Below are positions 26,570 to 41,928 of a stretch of 64,000 nt of DNA, one piece after another. The stretch lies in the IMG/VR virus record IMGVR_UViG_2925891887_000001, one strand, 5' to 3'. The number at the start of each line of letters is the position of its first letter. Position 1 is the stretch's first letter. Below the pieces are notes generated by a model, which made no database searches, was not told where the DNA came from, and worked only from the letters and a program-made list of their open reading frames with translations. The translations under genes were made by a program, and so were the position numbers. The DNA is from a virus (Duplodnaviria; Heunggongvirae; Uroviricota; Caudoviricetes).

Positions 26570-28276
26570 ATGGAATCGATAGAAGTATTTTTAAAAAATT
26601 TTTTGGACTCAGATCATCGGGTTGCTGTCATAAAAGGAAATTGGGGAGTAGGTAAAACGCATTATTGGAATAGCTTTTATACTAAACATTCTAAAAAATT
26701 AGATTTTAATGCATATTCATATGTTTCTTTGTTTGGAATAAATTCTATTGGAGACATTAAAAAAGCTCTTTATCATTGTGCCACACCAATTAATGAAAAG
26801 AAATATAAAGAACTGATTTTATCTGAAACGGATCGAACTATGATTCGTTATAGAAATGGGTTTTGGGGATGGTTGAAATACAACTCCTTGTCAAAATTTA
26901 TAATACATTTTGGAAAGAACGATTTTTTTGGGTTCAAAACTGATAATCTGCTGTCATCTCTTGAGTATAAATTTGTTAATAATTATTTGGTTTGCATTGA
27001 TGATATTGAACGAAAAGGTAGTGCGCTAGAAATTAAAGAGATTATGGGGGTAATTGATGAGTTGGCAAGAAGAAAAAATTGCAAGGTTGTTCTAATATTA
27101 AATGAAGATAACTTACATGAAGAAACTGCACAACAACAGTTTTTAGAGTATAGAGAAAAAATAATTGATGTGGAAATAAAATACGATCCCACGCCTGAGA
27201 AAAACTTAAGAAAAGTTTTTTATGAGACTGACCCTGATTTTCTTTTGTTAAAAAACCTAGCAAATGATTTAAACATCAAAAACATTAGAATATTAAATAA
27301 AATAAAATCATCTCTAGTTATATTTAGAGATGTGCTAAAGTTAGCAGAGGATAAGGTTAGAGAAAGTTTTATTAATAGATTGGTCTTATTTTCAGTGGTT
27401 TACTATTTTGGTGTTCCTAGCGTTGATTATGCTTCATTTAAGGAGTCAATCAAAAATATACATGCATTCGACTATATGTTAGATGATAAAGATGAAAAGG
27501 AAGAAGTTAACTCTGTATATTCATTTGTTAATAGCCTTGATGTTATTTATGAACGAGCAGAAAGTGCTTTCGATGATGATATAGATTTTTACCTTAAGAA
27601 CGGTTATGTTTCTTCTGAAAGCAATATTCTAAATATAATAAAAGAAAAAAATGAACAATATAGAGATAATAGGGTTTTATGTGAGGTTTATAAAATTTGG
27701 GATGTTTTTAGAAACTCTTTTAAAGATAATGAATCAGAGTTTATTTTTCAAATTGAGCGCGTAATTAACGATAGTCTGTTGCGTATACCAATTGGACAGT
27801 TCGTAGGTTTAATAAATGTCCTAATTAAATTGGATAGAGATTGTAATAATATTATAGAGGCATATGCAGATGCTTTTGTTAATAAAGACAATGCGTATGC
27901 TACATTTAATTCTTTGCGAGTAGAGATCTTCGGAAATGAAGAATTAGGTTTCAGAATTGAAAAAAAATTGAAAGATAGAAATCCAGATGACTATAACTTA
28001 GATAAAATTATAAAAAAAATAGCTGGTGGAAGATTTAACCATAGTGATGTGAATATTCTTAACAGTTTTTCTAAAGATGATTACGTAAACTGGATATTAT
28101 CCTGTGATCAGGATGCTTTGAATTTAGTAGAAGAGACTATGCTCAAGTTCAAGGGTATGCAACACCCGACAGACGAACAGAAGAGCATCACTGATAAAGC
28201 AATAGAAGCTTTGGAGGAAGTTGCTTCAAAATCAACACTTAATAAGCTGCGTGTTAATAAAATACTCAATCATTAA
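26570..28276 (+). CDS. KAP-family-like P-loop NTPase, strongly AT-rich cargo gene
   Basis: Walker A in KAP style (GNWGVGKTHYW), Walker B (LVCIDDIER); codon usage and base composition differ sharply from neighbours. Confidence 0.6.
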   Translation: MESIEVFLKNFLDSDHRVAVIKGNWGVGKTHYWNSFYTKHSKKLDFNAYSYVSLFGINSIGDIKKALYHCATPINEKKYKELILSETDRTMIRYRNGFWGWLKYNSLSKFIIHFGKNDFFGFKTDNLLSSLEYKFVNNYLVCIDDIERKGSALEIKEIMGVIDELARRKNCKVVLILNEDNLHEETAQQQFLEYREKIIDVEIKYDPTPEKNLRKVFYETDPDFLLLKNLANDLNIKNIRILNKIKSSLVIFRDVLKLAEDKVRESFINRLVLFSVVYYFGVPSVDYASFKESIKNIHAFDYMLDDKDEKEEVNSVYSFVNSLDVIYERAESAFDDDIDFYLKNGYVSSESNILNIIKEKNEQYRDNRVLCEVYKIWDVFRNSFKDNESEFIFQIERVINDSLLRIPIGQFVGLINVLIKLDRDCNNIIEAYADAFVNKDNAYATFNSLRVEIFGNEELGFRIEKKLKDRNPDDYNLDKIIKKIAGGRFNHSDVNILNSFSKDDYVNWILSCDQDALNLVEETMLKFKGMQHPTDEQKSITDKAIEALEEVASKSTLNKLRVNKILNH

Positions 28277-36871: not shown

Positions 36872-37020
36872 TTCCATACATCTCATTAGCTTTTATGGGT
36901 GGCTTCCTTATCGGCTTCGGCATCTGTCGTGATTTAGTTAAGCAGGAACTTAAAACCAAAACACTGTGCATCGGAAAGCGTGTGTATCGGGTAGTTCATG
37001 AAACAAAGGTGAAAAAATGA
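36868..37020 (+). CDS. small membrane protein (50 aa), paralogue of 36493..36672
   Basis: ATG overlapping upstream stop; TM helix followed by a shared basic motif (RVYRVVHETK versus RIYRIVEITN). Confidence 0.4.
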   Translation: MIPYISLAFMGGFLIGFGICRDLVKQELKTKTLCIGKRVYRVVHETKVKK

Positions 37021-37307
37021 GCAATTTAACTTCTTGGGAATGGTGGTTGGCCACCTATTTCTTAGCGGCCGGAGTCGCATTCGCCTTTTACGTAGGTCAG
37101 TTAGTCGTAAAACTGTTGCTGATTAAATTTGCTAGTCATAAACGTATCGATGATGGTCTGTGGCGTCTTGGCGCCCTGGTGGAAACTCGCTACGGGCAAC
37201 TTAAGGAGAACGAAACCATTACTATCCAAGCGAAACGATTCACTGCCACCATTACAAGAACACCTAGTCGTAGAGTGGCCTTGATCAAAAAAGTCACAAC
37301 CGAATAA
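37017..37307 (+). CDS. small membrane protein
   Basis: 96-aa ORF, N-terminal TM helix, ATGA start/stop overlap. Confidence 0.5.
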   Translation: MSNLTSWEWWLATYFLAAGVAFAFYVGQLVVKLLLIKFASHKRIDDGLWRLGALVETRYGQLKENETITIQAKRFTATITRTPSRRVALIKKVTTE

Positions 37308-37316
37308 AAACATATT

Positions 37317-37338
37317 GATAAGTATTTACTTACTTATC
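37317..37338. promoter_or_regulatory. perfect inverted repeat GATAAGTA-N6-TACTTATC, member of the recurrent GTAAGTA motif family
   Basis: Read directly from the sequence; related palindromes recur in many intergenic regions. Confidence 0.5.
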
Positions 37339-38085
37339 TTTTGTGTATAAGATGACTTTGTTTTCGTTGAGACGCGACTGTTTGAACTTAAATACAAGTG
37401 CAAACGAAGAAGTCTATCTGGCAGTAGCCTAATAAGCCAAACACCAGCGAGGTCAGTTTCCAGCCTCGTTACCGAAATGGGACACACTGAGCGAGTGTGA
37501 TTGCAGAACGCAGGAGGGAACATTCATGTTCCCTCCGATGAAGTAACAGAATGGGCGGTTGGTATATTTTCAACTCCATATGACTCCCGGATTCTTAGCC
37601 ACTGACCGCCCATCCTGTTACGTCATTTTGTTCAATTATGTCGTTTATACTGGGTTAAAAAGCGGCGACGTAGCCCGGCTGGTATGGTTAGCCAGCACAC
37701 AACGTTGAGGCCATTACATTTTTATCAATTCTAAGGTTCTATTCACAGAGATACCGGCGAGCGTTGATATGTAACATGTTGGGCAAACATTCAATCGGAG
37801 TAGTGGCCTCAACGTTGTGAAGACGGGATTGTTGTGTAGGTTTAACCACTGTTGCCATTGGTGCCTGTTTTCACAACAAATGATTCCATACATCACATTG
37901 TATAAATTACAAAGTAGGTGCTGTCCTCAGAAACATCATCTACTTAAAGATTTTGCCTTCTACTATTGAGCGAAGTCGAAAGCGTCTGGCACTAACGAAA
38001 AGTGCAAGTAGCGGTGCGTTTCCTGGCAGAAACTAAACCGTCGCGATTGGCACTGTTGAGTAATAAATACTGGCAGTGCTGAATT

Positions 38086-38160
38086 GATGGTGTAGCTCAG
38101 CGGTAGAGCAGTTGGCTGTTAACCAACTGGTCGGTGGTTCGAATCCACCCACCATCGCCA
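38086..38160 (+). tRNA. tRNA-Asn (anticodon GTT)
   Basis: Cloverleaf read by eye: acceptor GATGGTG/CACCATC, anticodon loop CTGTTAA, T-loop GGTTCGAATCC, encoded CCA. Confidence 0.8.
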
Positions 38161-38165
38161 ATTTA

Positions 38166-38252
38166 GGGGAGTTAGTCCGTAGAGGTAGCGGTGTAGACTG
38201 TAAATCTACTGTCATGGCGACTCGGGTGGTTCGACTCCATCACTCCCCACCA
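38166..38252 (+). tRNA. tRNA-Tyr (anticodon GTA), long variable arm
   Basis: Acceptor GGGGAGT/ACTCCCC, anticodon loop CTGTAAA, T-loop GGTTCGACTCC, encoded CCA. Confidence 0.75.
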
Positions 38253-38256
38253 AATT

Positions 38257-38332
38257 GCCGGTTTAGCTCAGTTGGTAGAGCAGTCGCTTTGTAAGCGAAT
38301 GGCCAGCGGTTCAAGTCCGTTAACCGGCACCA
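38257..38332 (+). tRNA. tRNA-Thr (anticodon TGT)
   Basis: Acceptor GCCGGTT/AACCGGC, D-arm AGCTCAGTTGGTAGAGC, anticodon loop TTTGTAA, T-loop GGTTCAAGTCC, encoded CCA. Confidence 0.75.
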
Positions 38333-38652
38333 ACACAACAGGTAAGAGCATTGGGCGAATCGGCGATACTGACCCACAAGGCCGTAAATCGATAGAGTCA
38401 GACCAGTGCTCTTACCGTTGTGAGGAAGTGCAGCTCTTTGAAGCAACCAGAAGATAAGCATCTGGCTTCACAACACAACGATAATATCATTACGGTTAAT
38501 CGTCGTTCATGTGCACAATGACTGGTCGAAAGGTAGTGATCTTACCGTTGTGATGAATGCACAGGCTGATGTGCCGCAACTACAGTAGTGCGCGCTTTGC
38601 GGGGCTTGCTACAACCCTGTGTCGGAGTTCAGCACCGACCATCACAATAGCT

Positions 38653-38739
38653 GGAGAGTAGGGAGCATGGTGCTCAAGCGGTCTTGAAAACCGTCCCATT
38701 GTGCAAACGATGATGGTTCGATTCCATTACTCTCCGCCA
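38653..38739 (+). tRNA. tRNA-Ser (anticodon TGA), long variable arm
   Basis: Acceptor GGAGAGT/ACTCTCC, anticodon loop CTTGAAA, T-loop GGTTCGATTCC, encoded CCA. Confidence 0.7.
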
Positions 38740-38894
38740 GACACAGCGTTGAGCGGTTTGGCCTTTTAATCAACTCGATTAAGACTCCGCTAACATAAAC
38801 CAGACCGCTCAACGCTGTGATAGATAATTACGGCAGACGTTCTTAACCATAGCTTGCTAACATCCTAGCAACACTTTTTTCAGCGCAAAATTCA

Positions 38895-38918
38895 AAGGGG
38901 CTTCGGCCCCTTTTTTGT
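38895..38918 (+). terminator. Rho-independent terminator closing the tRNA cluster
   Basis: AAAGGGGC-TTCG-GCCCC hairpin followed by TTTTTTGTT. Confidence 0.75.
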
Positions 38919-38931
38919 TGAACAGTGCAAT

Positions 38932-40194
38932 TTACTTTGCATAGTCGCCCAATTTTAATATTTCGCGCTTATATTCATTAACCATGCTACTGGATTCAGT
39001 ATAAATTCGATTTAAAAGATTATCGTTATCTTTATTTTCATTTATCTTAATTAGTGCTAATTTATATTCATAGTCATCAAATGCCACAATTAAATGGTGG
39101 CCTGGGATTATATCTTCGTCACTCTTAAAGTATATATCTTCAAGTATGTAATCTAGTTGATTAGATTTTCTTTTCTCGATGTAATCTTCAGCCATAGCTA
39201 TTACATCATTCCTGTCATTTAACCTGTTTTTTTCGGAAGGCACATCTTCGTAATGTTGCACGATTGAACAACCAATAAGGCGTGGGATGTAAACGTCAAA
39301 ATGAGTAACTCTATCATTCGCGGTTTTAAGTAGTTCCTCAAAGTAGTTTCTTACATGTAAAGGCAACTTCTCAAAGTAATCATTAATTATAGGAGAACAA
39401 GGAGTTTTATAATTCATAAGAACCGACGGTACGAGCTTTGGGTGTCGAAACATCCAGTCCCTTTTAACGTCCGATGGAACATAATAACTTTTAATGATAT
39501 TATCAAAATAATTTATCATTCGAGATTTGAATATTTTGTTGAATCTAAGGTTTATGAATGTATCCAGATAAGGCATATTTGAATAAGCATCATCAAAAAA
39601 TATTTCATCATTGAAAAAATCATATTTATTCAATAAACAACACAGTTTTTCCGAATTAATATGTTCACAATAATCGATTTTTAATCCAAAGATAGCAATG
39701 ATCAACTTCATCTGAGGTGGGATTTTAAAAATTAATTGTGACACATACGCTCTTTTTTCCTTGAGACATTCCCCATCAATATAAAATGAACCATCCACAT
39801 ACTCAAATATATTAATAATATGCTTCACATACTGTATTACCTCATGCTGTCTTACCAATGGATAATATAGTCTATGTAACTCATCGCTGTTTAAATTAAT
39901 TTTGTGTTTATCGATAATTTGTTTTGCAAGAAGACATAACTCATCATGTTGATTTAATAAGGAATCAAACCATTGTTTAAATGCACTCTTTCGCATTTCG
40001 AACAATGATTCAGTTGTTAATTGAAGGGCTGAAAAAGCTGCTTTTGCACTTTTTCTCGCTTCGTAGGCATTCCATGCTGTTGCTATAAAAGCAAATGCTG
40101 TAGCCAATGTTCCAACAGTTTGACCATTTAAAACAACCCAATCCCAAAAAATGACGGTGAGCAGTAGTATAATAATGAAAATTAAAAAAGGCAT
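38932..40194 (-). CDS. AT-rich membrane-anchored protein of unknown function (cargo gene)
   Basis: 420-aa ORF, two N-terminal hydrophobic helices, strongly AT-rich, adjacent to tRNAs and an integrase. Confidence 0.55.
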   Translation of the reverse strand: MPFLIFIIILLLTVIFWDWVVLNGQTVGTLATAFAFIATAWNAYEARKSAKAAFSALQLTTESLFEMRKSAFKQWFDSLLNQHDELCLLAKQIIDKHKINLNSDELHRLYYPLVRQHEVIQYVKHIINIFEYVDGSFYIDGECLKEKRAYVSQLIFKIPPQMKLIIAIFGLKIDYCEHINSEKLCCLLNKYDFFNDEIFFDDAYSNMPYLDTFINLRFNKIFKSRMINYFDNIIKSYYVPSDVKRDWMFRHPKLVPSVLMNYKTPCSPIINDYFEKLPLHVRNYFEELLKTANDRVTHFDVYIPRLIGCSIVQHYEDVPSEKNRLNDRNDVIAMAEDYIEKRKSNQLDYILEDIYFKSDEDIIPGHHLIVAFDDYEYKLALIKINENKDNDNLLNRIYTESSSMVNEYKREILKLGDYAK

Positions 40195-40824: not shown

Positions 40825-41928
40825 ATGAAAAATAGCTTTGACAGAGCACGCGCTGCGGAGAACACCTCAAAAGAGGCGATTGAGTATCTCGAAAGAGCAT
40901 CTCAAATGCAGGCCGTTATGATCTCGCAGGTCAGCAATGACATGAGATTCTCGGACGCATTCATGTTATTCACTCGCTTATCTCTGCTGATAACAAGACG
41001 TCGGCCAGAGATCGCTGTTCATTGTATTTTGATACATGTTTTGCCGCACATTGCCGATGTAAAAGTAAGTGACATTAATAGGTTCATGGTGAACCAACTG
41101 GTCAACCCACTAATACTGGATGGCAAAATTGTTATGGGCCGCCGCGTTTTCTCTCTGATGAAGCAGTTCCTTAGCTGGTGCGCCTTCCAGGGGATGATAG
41201 ACGTGTCACCGTTAAACGATATGTCACTAAACAAAGTTGCCGGTGGCGCAAAGCCCACACCTCGCGAGCGGAAGCTGACCGACGCAGAGGTATGGGTGTT
41301 CTGGAATATATGGGACTACTTCAATGTGTGCGCTGGTACAAAATGGGCGGCCAGGCTGTGTCTTGTATCCGCAAGACGACCTGACGAAGTACTGCGGGCT
41401 AAAAAAAGTGAGTTCAATCTTAAGCGTGGGGTTTGGAATCAAGGCAAGAGGAACAAATCTGCCCGTGAGCATTCGCTGCCTTTAAGCACATTAATGCGCA
41501 CATGTATTGAAGAGTTGTTCGAATACGGTAAAGGCAGCCAGTGGCTCGTGCCTTCGAATAAAAAAATCGGGAAAGACCTTCCTATGTCTAAAGTGGCAAT
41601 AGCCCAGGCATTACGTCGTATCCTGGAACGACCAGAACTGATGGAGCTTGAGCCATTTACACCCCGAGACTTGCGCCGTACTGCGCGTAGTTACTTCCCA
41701 GCATTAGGCATAAGCCAGGAGGTCTCACGCAAAATCATGAACCACAGTCTTGAGGGGATAGATCGAGTCTACGACCGGCACGATTATATGGACGAGATGC
41801 GAGACGCCTTAGAAAGTTTCTCGACGTACATCGCATCAATCGTAGAGCAACCGGATTTAGACGAAATTGACCACAAATTCAAGGGAGATCGTCTATCAAC
41901 AGAGCTTATTCGTGTAAATTTTTCATAG
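40825..41928 (+). CDS. tyrosine recombinase/integrase
   Basis: C-terminal catalytic signature (RDLRRTARSY ... HS..G.DRVYDRHDY); 367 aa. Confidence 0.75.
   Translation: MKNSFDRARAAENTSKEAIEYLERASQMQAVMISQVSNDMRFSDAFMLFTRLSLLITRRRPEIAVHCILIHVLPHIADVKVSDINRFMVNQLVNPLILDGKIVMGRRVFSLMKQFLSWCAFQGMIDVSPLNDMSLNKVAGGAKPTPRERKLTDAEVWVFWNIWDYFNVCAGTKWAARLCLVSARRPDEVLRAKKSEFNLKRGVWNQGKRNKSAREHSLPLSTLMRTCIEELFEYGKGSQWLVPSNKKIGKDLPMSKVAIAQALRRILERPELMELEPFTPRDLRRTARSYFPALGISQEVSRKIMNHSLEGIDRVYDRHDYMDEMRDALESFSTYIASIVEQPDLDEIDHKFKGDRLSTELIRVNFS

Follow-up and report, generated by a model that had tools for sequence, protein, structure and literature searches.

A putative phage stable-RNA operon related to the P1 ban leader combines a tmRNA-like tag RNA, candidate punctuating hairpins, and tRNAs

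The RNA block and its tag RNA

The DNA described here is a 64,000-nucleotide stretch of the virus record IMGVR_UViG_2925891887_000001 (Caudoviricetes), referred to throughout as the window. Positions 37316-38920 on its + strand read as a single non-coding unit that comprises a promoter-like site, an RNA resembling the coding half of transfer-messenger RNA (tmRNA), a series of hairpins, four tRNA genes, and an intrinsic terminator (Table 1). We refer to the tmRNA-like RNA as the tag RNA and to the long-stem hairpins as units 0 and A to D. Every feature of the block lies on the + strand, and the open reading frames (ORFs) inside the region are all 73 aa or shorter. The four tRNAs noted in an earlier, sequence-only reading of this DNA were recovered by ARAGORN as tRNA-Asn, -Tyr, -Thr, and -Ser. 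The same reading had taken the stretch upstream of tRNA-Asn to be free of ORFs and had overlooked that its first ~160 nt (37360-37511) are a tmRNA-like RNA with a tag frame and pseudoknots, which sets the region apart more than any other feature. Screening of the region against Rfam at E <= 10 returned only the tRNAs and weak, sub-threshold tmRNA matches, with no riboswitch, YrlA, DicF, C4, or other known family.

Table 1. Features of the RNA block and its neighbors, with coordinates in the window. Values of z compare the folding energy of a hairpin with 200 shuffles of that hairpin.
Feature	Coordinates	Strand	Description
Upstream neighbors			ATP-dependent DNA ligase gene and four small ORFs
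Promoter-like site	37316-37353	+	Candidate -35 TTTACT (37325-37330) and candidate -10 TAAGAT (37348-37353), read from the sequence
Operator-like palindrome	37318-37325 / 37332-37339		8-bp arms GATAAGTA / TACTTATC; overlaps the putative -35
Tag RNA	37360-37511	+	About 150-160 nt; invariant 5' GUUUUCGU, tag frame, stop-codon helix, two pseudoknots
Tag frame	37400-37435	+	GCA AAC GAA GAA GTC TAT CTG GCA GTA GCC TAA TAA, ANEEVYLAVA and two stops, from the sequence
Helix-5-like stem	37418-37447	+	CUGG 37418-37421 / CCAG 37444-37447; encloses the tag end and stop codons
Pseudoknot 2	37448-37482	+	Stem 1 CGAGG 37448-37452 / CCUCG 37464-37468; loop UUCC 37458-37461 with GGGA 37479-37482
Pseudoknot 3	37483-37511	+	Stem 1 CACACU 37483-37488 / AGUGUG 37494-37499; stem 2 GCG 37491-37493 / CGC 37509-37511
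Short hairpin	37513-37523 / 37526-37536	+	Perfect 11 bp; z = -4.6; directly 3' of the tag RNA
Unit 0	37538-37559 / 37605-37626	+	22-nt arms, 91% complementary; z = -5.9
Unit A	37698-37717 / 37800-37819	+	CACAACGUUGAGGCCAUUAC … GUAGUGGCCUCAACGUUGUG; 20 nt, 95%; z = -5.6
Overlapping hairpin	37814-37877	+	GUUGUGAAGACGGG / CCUGUUUUCACAAC; z = -2.5; shares the unit A 3' arm as an alternative pairing
tRNA-Asn(GUU)	38086-38160	+	ARAGORN; Rfam tRNA 75.5 bits, above threshold
tRNA-Tyr(GUA)	38166-38252	+	ARAGORN; Rfam tRNA 41.6 bits, above threshold
tRNA-Thr(UGU)	38257-38332	+	ARAGORN; Rfam tRNA 69.0 bits, above threshold
Unit B	38334-38354 / 38403-38422	+	CACAAC-A-GGUAAGAGCAUUGG … CCAGUGCUCUUACCGUUGUG; one bulged A; z = -5.5
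Overlapping hairpin	38417-38474	+	GUUGUGAGG … CUUCACAAC; z = -2.3; shares the unit B 3' arm; segment kept in P1
Unit C	38474-38552	+	CACAACGAUAAUAUCAUUAC … GUAGUGAUCUUACCGUUGUG; z = -2.4; weakest family stem
Conserved spacer	38553-38650	+	Begins GAUGAAUGC; small hairpin GCAC 38559-38562 / GUGC 38571-38574
tRNA-Ser(UGA)	38653-38739	+	ARAGORN; Rfam tRNA-clan model (tRNA-Sec) 44.8 bits, just under that family's threshold
Unit D	38742-38761 / 38800-38819	+	CACAGCGUUGAGCGGUUUGG … CCAGACCGCUCAACGCUGUG; 20 nt, 95%; z = -9.6
Intrinsic terminator, strong	38894-38920	+	8-bp G+C-rich stem, then T-run; strong call at 38894-38913; closes the unit
Downstream neighbors			AT-rich orphan gene (opposite strand), glutaredoxin gene, tyrosine recombinase gene
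Tyrosine recombinase gene	40825-41928		2 kb downstream of the block; matches the general Phage_integrase family only

The weak Rfam tmRNA matches pointed to the tag frame, and the homologous site in P1 encodes ANDDLMMVAA followed by a stop. Approximately 23 variants of the tag peptide were identified, every one of which comprises 10 codons with the pattern A-N-[DE]-x-x-x-[LM]-x-[AV]-A and then UAA. An alignment of the tag RNA family comprising 33 lineages provided the basis for a covariance model and for all structure counts. In this alignment, the 33 columns of the tag are free of gaps and gaps occur in 52 of the 167 other columns; the most variable tag positions are third codon positions. 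Moreover, 26 of the 33 lineages have an in-frame stop 4-15 codons upstream of the tag, with no ATG, GTG, or TTG between that stop and the GCA codon. In these respects, the tag behaves like a coding sequence that lacks a conventional start.

The predicted fold of the tag RNA is well conserved among lineages. Paired bases accounted for 85.5% of cells, as compared to 38-45% with slid partners, and the covariation score was 0.274 versus 0.05-0.10; helices 4-9 show compensatory changes, and the observed score was reached by none of 500 shuffles. The helix that holds the stop codons (helix 4) is 99% paired, with one pair being G-C in 17 lineages and A-U in 16. Pseudoknot 2 comprises helix 6, with three covarying pairs, and helix 7, in which all four pairs covary and the loop pairing takes the forms CCAG/CUGG, CCGA/UCGG, CCAA/UUGG, CUAG/CUAG, GUCG/CGAC, and UUCC/GGGA depending on the lineage. 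In pseudoknot 3, helix 8 is 95% paired with four covarying pairs and helix 9 has three covarying pairs across the family; its second stem is also predicted in the SSU5-type copy, where it is weak. A candidate for a pseudoknot 1-like element (GUUUU/GAAAC crossed by CUUUG/CAAAG) was also identified, and little covariation was detected in helices 1-3. The family covariance model scores 87.9 bits over 37356-37521 of the window. A second match to the model at 27409-27562 falls inside a 568-aa ORF and was rejected as spurious.

Comparison with genuine tmRNAs shows that the tag RNA has a degron-like tag frame free of initiation signals and a helix 5 followed by downstream pseudoknots. An ungapped, in-register alignment was obtained between the family profile and nt 80-128 of E. 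coli ssrA, a segment that comprises the A-rich stretch, resume codon, ten codons, and UAA. The covariance model also detected E. coli ssrA at 21.4 bits (E = 0.005), in a match to its mRNA-like domain and helix 5, and another genuine tmRNA at 22.6 bits. ARAGORN called no tmRNA and no tRNA-like domain in the window or in 17 related loci, although it did call standard and permuted tmRNAs that the same scan had retrieved. The best matches to Rfam tmRNA models scored 11-27 bits against gathering thresholds of 47-84 and were sub-threshold in every lineage tested. Cronobacter phage CS01 and Aeromonas phage pAh6-C each have a stand-alone tag RNA that is flanked by protein genes and adjoined by neither a tRNA-like sequence nor a hairpin unit, and the CS01 copy has no tRNA-like sequence within ~1.2 kb on either side. 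The tag RNA is not a member of the tmRNA family, and it shares with tmRNA the mRNA-like domain, helix 5, and pseudoknot layout. We regard it as a widespread, unannotated tmRNA derivative that consists of the coding and pseudoknot part only. A circularly permuted tmRNA, formed by the tag RNA and the next hairpin, was considered and rejected on the basis of the variable hairpin interiors, the lack of an acceptor/CCA arrangement, and the existence of stand-alone copies with no hairpin.

Pattern scans followed by BLAST identified the tag RNA in more than 300 viral contigs and in at least 766 of 50,697 phage records. Carriers include P1-type, SSU5-type, HK620/HK633, Felix O1-like, ViI-like, T1-like, and N4-like phages, along with Klebsiella, Erwinia, and Serratia phages, Vibrio phage pYD38-A, and Aeromonas phage pAh6-C. 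A scan of genome contigs with a loose pattern (GTTTTCGT…GCAAACGA) returned only chance matches and one real alphaproteobacterial tmRNA. The tag RNA is almost never annotated; for example, RefSeq has nothing at the site in 257 E. coli genomes. We found no description of the tag RNA or of its peptides in the collection of literature searched, which was incomplete, such that an earlier description may exist.

Further tRNA-like sequences were noticed in other phages. N4-like phages (L008 1918-1985, L084 11549-11615) have a conserved tRNA-like gene with a 7-bp acceptor stem, T-arm, and ACCA end, in which a short tetraloop hairpin replaces the anticodon arm; it is called by neither ARAGORN nor Rfam. 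The Felix O1-like phage EcSzw-2 (L252 1487-1605, 1750-1830) has two uncalled tRNA-like sequences just 3' of the tag RNA, with acceptor stem, T-arm, and GCCA ends and with long or irregular interiors.

The hairpin family

Seven hairpins were identified in the block, five of which (units 0 and A to D) are long-stem hairpins of 78-122 nt that form one paralogous family. All inverted repeats listed in the sequence-only reading exist, and most are longer than had been described; for example, the arms of unit 0 span 22 nt rather than 9 nt. That list had missed an additional unit, C, whose 23-nt arms (38471-38493 / 38533-38555) are 83% complementary and pair better in orthologs. Units A-D start with CACA(A/G)C and end with G(U/C)UGUG, such that the family shares the stem base CACAAC…GUUGUG, and the inner stems differ in sequence yet stay complementary. 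Unit 0 aligns with a homologous hairpin (GCACAACAGGTAAGGGCGCTGG…, starting GCACAACAGG) that follows the tag RNA of P1 and, on this basis, belongs to the same family. The uninterrupted part of unit B spans 14 nt (38341-38354 / 38403-38416), and unit A has a U·G wobble at stem position 17 that recurs at that position in aligned arms of the family. The 3' arms of units A and B can each pair alternatively with a downstream UCACAAC.

The motif CACARCG, or its complement, occurs at 37698, 37813, 38416, 38474, 38546, 38742, and 38813, which amounts to seven of the 17 occurrences in the window. These seven sites fall within 1.1 kb, where an estimated ~0.3 would be expected by chance, and the other 63 kb hold ten. 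A recurring motif had been noted earlier at this locus, and its clustering stands with coordinates shifted by 1-4 nt.

Compensatory changes in relatives, which the sequence-only reading had proposed as a check on its stems, were identified in orthologs from SSU5, Y. pestis pFra, Klebsiella, Enterobacter, and Citrobacter plasmids, P1, and D6. Among 18 distinct arm pairs comprising orthologs and paralogs, 97.7% of cells are paired, as compared to 29-52% with slid partners; eight of 17 stem pairs have been altered on both sides, and no shuffle reached the observed covariation. Orthologs of unit 0 show such changes, as does unit D when compared to its Enterobacter and Citrobacter orthologs. Likewise, the small GCAC/GUGC hairpin within the conserved spacer becomes GCGC/GCGC in HK633. 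In a set of 63 unique hairpins drawn from ~130 related loci, reading on the tRNA strand gave 45 G·U pairs as against 20 A·C mismatches, which fits hairpins formed by the + strand transcript.

The hairpins also have a consistent position relative to stable RNAs. Unit B begins 1 nt 3' of the CCA of tRNA-Thr and unit D begins 2 nt 3' of the CCA of tRNA-Ser, and the same 1-2 nt spacing after CCA was observed in P1 (Thr), a Klebsiella plasmid (Thr and Ser), and Enterobacter and Citrobacter plasmids (Asn). Across 240 related loci, 44 of 117 motif-defined units start no more than 2 nt to either side of a tRNA 3' end, with the remainder located directly after the leading tag RNA or between other conserved RNA segments. 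The final pseudoknot of the tag RNA is immediately followed by a unit in HK633, Kpn BU9, P1, and numerous viral contigs, and unit B is found 3' of tRNA-Thr in P1 and 3' of the tag RNA in HK633. The short hairpin that directly follows the tag RNA in the window is conserved in place among SSU5-type relatives and not in sequence, since relatives have a different 12-bp hairpin there. An N4-like phage with the same Asn-Thr tRNA block also has hairpins next to its tRNAs; these are unrelated in sequence to the family and measure 82-97 nt, with stems of 13-19 bp.

Interiors of the hairpins are wholly different even in close relatives, with the stems retained. Blocks of the array also come and go: phage Cyrano lacks tRNA-Tyr and units B and C, with the loss exactly at tRNA borders. 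The conserved spacer is 96% identical to P1-type plasmids, and a longer match of 96% identity to these plasmids (38405-38646) begins inside the 3' arm of unit B. Collectively, these results show that the hairpins are selected structures on the + strand, directly 3' of stable RNAs. The sequence-only reading had suggested small RNAs or tRNA-processing structures, and the covarying hairpins, the wobble bias toward the + strand, and the abutment on tRNA 3' ends bear this out. Units 0, A, B, and D have stems of 17-22 bp, which corresponds to the length of about two helical turns or more that typifies RNase III stems. We infer that the hairpins are RNA-level punctuation or processing elements, and they may represent a new form of punctuation in the tRNA clusters of phages.

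Other conserved segments and repeats accompany hairpins of this kind. Segments that start with GGUGAAUGC or GAUGAAUGC follow the hairpins in several phages and may be further small RNAs; the P1 segment (L002 2683-2802) has a sub-threshold match to Rfam STnc100 (33 bits, E = 4e-5). In pAh6-C, two copies of a ~50-nt hairpin repeat flank the stand-alone tag RNA (L256 1510-1565, 1720-1775), and here, too, a stable RNA lies between hairpins. In other Aeromonas phages, the matches to the query are confined to these two repeat stretches and do not extend to the tag RNA.

Promoter-like site, P1 homology, and genomic context

The block is preceded by a promoter-like site with a candidate start at G37360. 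A TAAGAT/TATGAT box and the palindrome are kept in SSU5-type relatives, 6-7 nt 5' of the conserved GTTTTCG. From these features, a regulated promoter is predicted, with the palindrome at 37318-37339 as a candidate operator.

Two segments of the block align with P1. The first (37358-~37700) aligns between the C1-controlled Pban promoters and tRNA-Asn, and the second (38227-38646) aligns downstream of tRNA-Thr. In P1 the homologous block is located between the C1-controlled Pban promoters and ban, and its counterpart in HK633 separates PR'/qut from the holin gene. The P1 record places the genes plp and upl on the minus strand, over covarying hairpin units and conserved RNA spacers of the ban leader (L002 2075-2644), and these two are therefore probably not real genes. 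In Y. pestis pFra (L006 2040-2505), the tag RNA and unit A are kept, the tRNAs are lost, and caf1R begins ~15 nt after unit A.

The region is part of an SSU5-type phage-plasmid. It is matched best by Escherichia phages CMS-2020a (97%) and Cyrano (98%) and by many E. coli IncFIB 'plasmids' of 105-115 kb. Just upstream of the block, a 96-aa ORF (37017-37307, +) is named 'C-type natriuretic protein' in several database records; this ORF has no Pfam support, and the name therefore looks like a propagated annotation error. Downstream, a 420-aa AT-rich orphan gene (38932-40194, -) converges on the terminator of the RNA operon and has no match in Pfam or PADLOC searches. The same slot is occupied by an AbiH-family gene in a Klebsiella relative (L003) and by the F1 capsule locus (caf1R and caf1M) in Y. 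pestis pFra (L006). Since differing genes occupy the slot in relatives, it looks like a hotspot for variable cargo.

A proposed stable-RNA operon weighed against its alternatives

Taken together, these observations favor, with a probability of roughly 0.6, a reading in which the block forms a stable-RNA operon of the phage, homologous to the P1 ban leader and comprising a tmRNA-derived tag RNA, punctuating hairpins, tRNAs, and a terminator. Transcription would probably proceed from G37360 through the tag RNA, hairpins, and tRNAs to the terminator, with the hairpins punctuating the polycistronic transcript. Because duplexes of two turns directly after CCA leave no single-stranded landing site, release of the tRNA and tag RNA ends would require an enzyme that cuts double strands or structures. 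Duplexes of 20 bp or more may be cut by a host RNase; the obvious choice would be RNase III, and RNase P, which would act on the hairpins as substrates, is an alternative. Such cutting would free and protect the ends of the neighboring tRNAs and tag RNA, and a leftover stem could shield them from 3' exonucleases. The conserved stems may double as recombination joints through which tRNA and RNA cassettes are shuffled among phages.

The tag RNA would act on the trans-translation apparatus of the host (ribosome, SmpB, S1, or RNase R); its tag frame, AUA-containing stretch, and pseudoknots look built for the ribosome and SmpB. It could compete with the coding part of tmRNA or serve as a decoy for it, or it could stand in as a template. 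The leading hypothesis is thus that the tag RNA interferes with host trans-translation or re-uses it, and the most economical version is that the tag RNA is a mimic that competes for factors binding the tmRNA body. Mycobacteriophage DS6A would offer a parallel: its tmRNA-like gene has the tRNA-like domain only, and inhibition of tmRNA by titration of SmpB has been suggested for it (PMC4131195). In addition, a phage anti-CRISPR protein uses tRNA and tmRNA fragments against RNase R, which indicates that such fragments can serve counter-defense (PMC11662646).

The substitute-template version is more radical; supposing a partner that is provided in trans, it would account for the coding-type conservation of the tag. 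In its explicit form, the tag RNA would be the coding module of a new split tmRNA, held through base pairing or protein contacts to a host or phage tRNA-like partner, and rescued nascent chains of host or phage would bear phage tags (…YLAVA, …MMVAA, …LMAA) in place of the host degron ANDENYALAA. We consider this unlikely.

Several points weigh against the stable-RNA operon and the role proposed for its tag RNA. Some of the conservation of the tag could be structural rather than coding because part of the tag lies inside a helix. The substitute template is without a mechanism, as a template that lacks a tRNA-like domain cannot enter the ribosome by a known route. The promoter-like site is weak by consensus and, because it matches the consensus at eight of 12 positions, went uncalled in a scan of the region. 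A Y. pestis small-RNA survey lists no small RNA at the homologous pMT1 site; sR082 and sR083 of the Y. pestis lists lie elsewhere on pMT1 and therefore provide no expression evidence for or against the tag RNA. Perfect palindromic stems would fold in single-stranded DNA too, and the wobble bias is moderate (~2:1). Hypervariable interiors fit a dispensable loop but leave the conserved CACAAC/GUUGUG base unexplained. Finally, cleavage by RNase III is predicted from stem length only.

One alternative is that the hairpins act at the DNA level, either as attC-like single-strand recombination sites or as miniature inverted-repeat mobile elements that move cassettes. Sites of the attC type are imperfect inverted repeats of 57-141 nt that follow each integron cassette and have AAC…GTT outer ends and a variable center. 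The hairpins are likewise imperfect inverted repeats with a variable center, fall within this size range at 78-122 nt, and hold the AAC…GTT core of the attC R-box in their outer bases, (C)ACAAC…GUUGU(G). Modular content is also in keeping with this reading, since tRNA-Tyr and units B and C are present or absent as blocks and the hairpin family occurs in the unrelated backbones of P1, SSU5-type phages, HK633, and Kpn BU9, as is the tyrosine recombinase gene 2 kb downstream of the block. However, the near-perfect 17-22-bp stems have neither the central spacer nor the extrahelical bases of attC, being continuous with a single bulged A in unit B only, and their ends (CACAAC; in full, ACACAAC/GTTGTGA) depart from the RYYYAAC consensus of the R-box. 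No integron integrase, attI, or target-site duplication was identified, the units are not dispersed and their motif is confined to the RNA operon, and the units of P1 lie far from its recombinase genes with no adjacent integrase. Moreover, wobble pairs favor the transcribed strand, which points to RNA, and the units keep a fixed distance from RNA 3' ends. We therefore regard a DNA-level role as improbable.

A different function for the tag RNA, as an antisense RNA that would block or destabilize host tmRNA, would follow from its 5' GUUUUCGU, which is exactly complementary to ACGAAAAC within the E. coli tag codons GAC GAA AAC. This motif is invariant across lineages although the tags of the phages themselves are different at these positions; in six of eight lineages, the first 24 nt form their best predicted duplex with ssrA nt 75-108, and complementarity reaches 9-10 bp in several lineages. 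Yet the duplex energies are no better than those of shuffled 24-mers (fraction as good 0.03 to 0.8), an 8-mer match is estimated to occur about once by chance between RNAs of these sizes, and the 5' motif may instead pair internally, GUUUU with GAAAC in helix 1. Given also that the tag is identical in all known hosts and that the conserved tag frame and pseudoknots would be left unexplained, an antisense role is decidedly improbable.

The sequence-only reading had also suggested that the structures are decayed tRNA genes, here in the form of decayed or atypical tRNA genes with extended acceptor stems. T-arm-like stem-loops do occur inside the hairpins of relatives, namely in P1 unit B (AGGGTTCGAATCCCT beside the 3' arm), in an N4-like hairpin (TTAGGTTCGAATCCTAA beside the 3' arm), and twice in the Kpn BU9 unit, such that a distant tRNA ancestry is possible for some units, and every unit fills a slot in the tRNA array. 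The window units themselves have no T-arm, D-arm, or CCA end and are called by neither ARAGORN nor Rfam. Stems are kept and interiors replaced between close relatives, which is the opposite of the decay of a tRNA body, and the stems measure 17-22 bp rather than 7 bp. YrlA (Rfam RF02553) is a comparable known RNA in that it has a long terminal stem enclosing tRNA-like pieces and is present in some phages. No YrlA match was detected in the window at E <= 10 or on any hairpin unit, the weak match in P1 (25.6 bits, threshold 69) covers tRNA-Asn and tRNA-Thr and not a hairpin, and the order of T-arms in the units of relatives is unlike that of YrlA. The suggestion is not supported for the window hairpins, and in its broader form it is very unlikely.

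It is scarcely credible that the tag region is a conventional small ORF, or a fragment of host ssrA that has no function and was left by imprecise prophage excision: an in-frame ATG at 37352 would yield a 26-aa ORF in the window, and ssrA fragments in prophages have precedent, being known and ascribed to integration and excision (PMC9004378, PMC4131195), but this ATG lies upstream of the predicted transcription start and within the -10 box, 26 of the 33 lineages have an in-frame stop before GCA and no start codon after that stop, att-derived fragments are ssrA 3' ends rather than the coding part, and a sequence that retains only ~8 bits of similarity to E. coli ssrA is found covarying in at least 766 phage records, virulent phages included. 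A relic undergoing neutral substitution is contradicted by the covariation in the 33-lineage alignment.

If the stable-RNA operon is borne out, then a large and diverse set of phages of enteric bacteria carries an unannotated RNA from the coding half of tmRNA. Its members range from the textbook phages P1 and HK620 to the Felix O1 and ViI groups, which find use in phage therapy and typing, and to the plague plasmid pMT1/pFra. It would raise the question of whether a tag template that lacks the tRNA-like half serves as a decoy, an inhibitor, or a substitute template, in a system that is tractable in E. coli and P1. If instead the split tmRNA were true, hundreds of unrelated phages would re-program ribosome rescue and proteolysis during infection. 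The hairpins, for their part, would provide a reading rule for phage tRNA regions (a stable RNA, then a punctuating hairpin), would explain the shuffling of tRNA cassettes between unrelated phages, and would expose probable mis-annotated ORFs such as P1 plp and upl.

Among known systems, the RNase III stems of rRNA operons and of T7 and lambda transcripts are duplexes of two or more helical turns that flank stable RNAs. The proposed operon shares with them long duplexes flanking stable RNAs in a polycistronic transcript, which in the present case is a prediction, and differs in the conserved CACAAC/GUUGUG base and large variable interiors, which have no described counterpart. With tmRNA, the tag RNA shares an A-rich stretch with AUA upstream of the GCA resume codon, a tag of 10 codons with an A-N-D/E start and an Ala/Val-Ala end that equals the enterobacterial ANDENYALAA in length, a UAA within a helix-5-like stem, and H-type pseudoknots 3' of the tag. 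In contrast to tmRNA, it has no acceptor stem, T-arm, CCA, or long helix 2, it measures ~160 nt as compared to ~360 nt with two downstream pseudoknots rather than three, and it is phage-encoded, usually in tRNA arrays or operon leaders.

DS6A and the complete phage tmRNAs (the Bxz1 group, Bacillus phage G, and Melnitz) are likewise phage-borne derivatives of tmRNA. DS6A retains the tRNA-like domain, whereas the tag RNA retains the opposite half, that is, the coding domain and pseudoknots. An exhaustive tmRNA survey found phage ssrA in mycobacteriophages and Bacillus phage G only (PMC4131195); that survey relied on the tRNA-like domain and reported none in the phages of Enterobacterales, Aeromonas, and Vibrio, where the tag RNA occurs.

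The direct homolog is the P1 ban-operon leader, which comprises Pban, a dicF-like region, trnA, trnT, 'plp/upl', tciABC, trnI, and ban. The tag RNA, the hairpin after it, tRNA-Asn, tRNA-Thr, the unit B hairpin, and the next spacer align between the two. The P1 leader differs in having a dicF-like RNA upstream and protein genes downstream, whereas the window has its own promoter-like site, the additional tRNA-Tyr and tRNA-Ser, and an end formed by a terminator.

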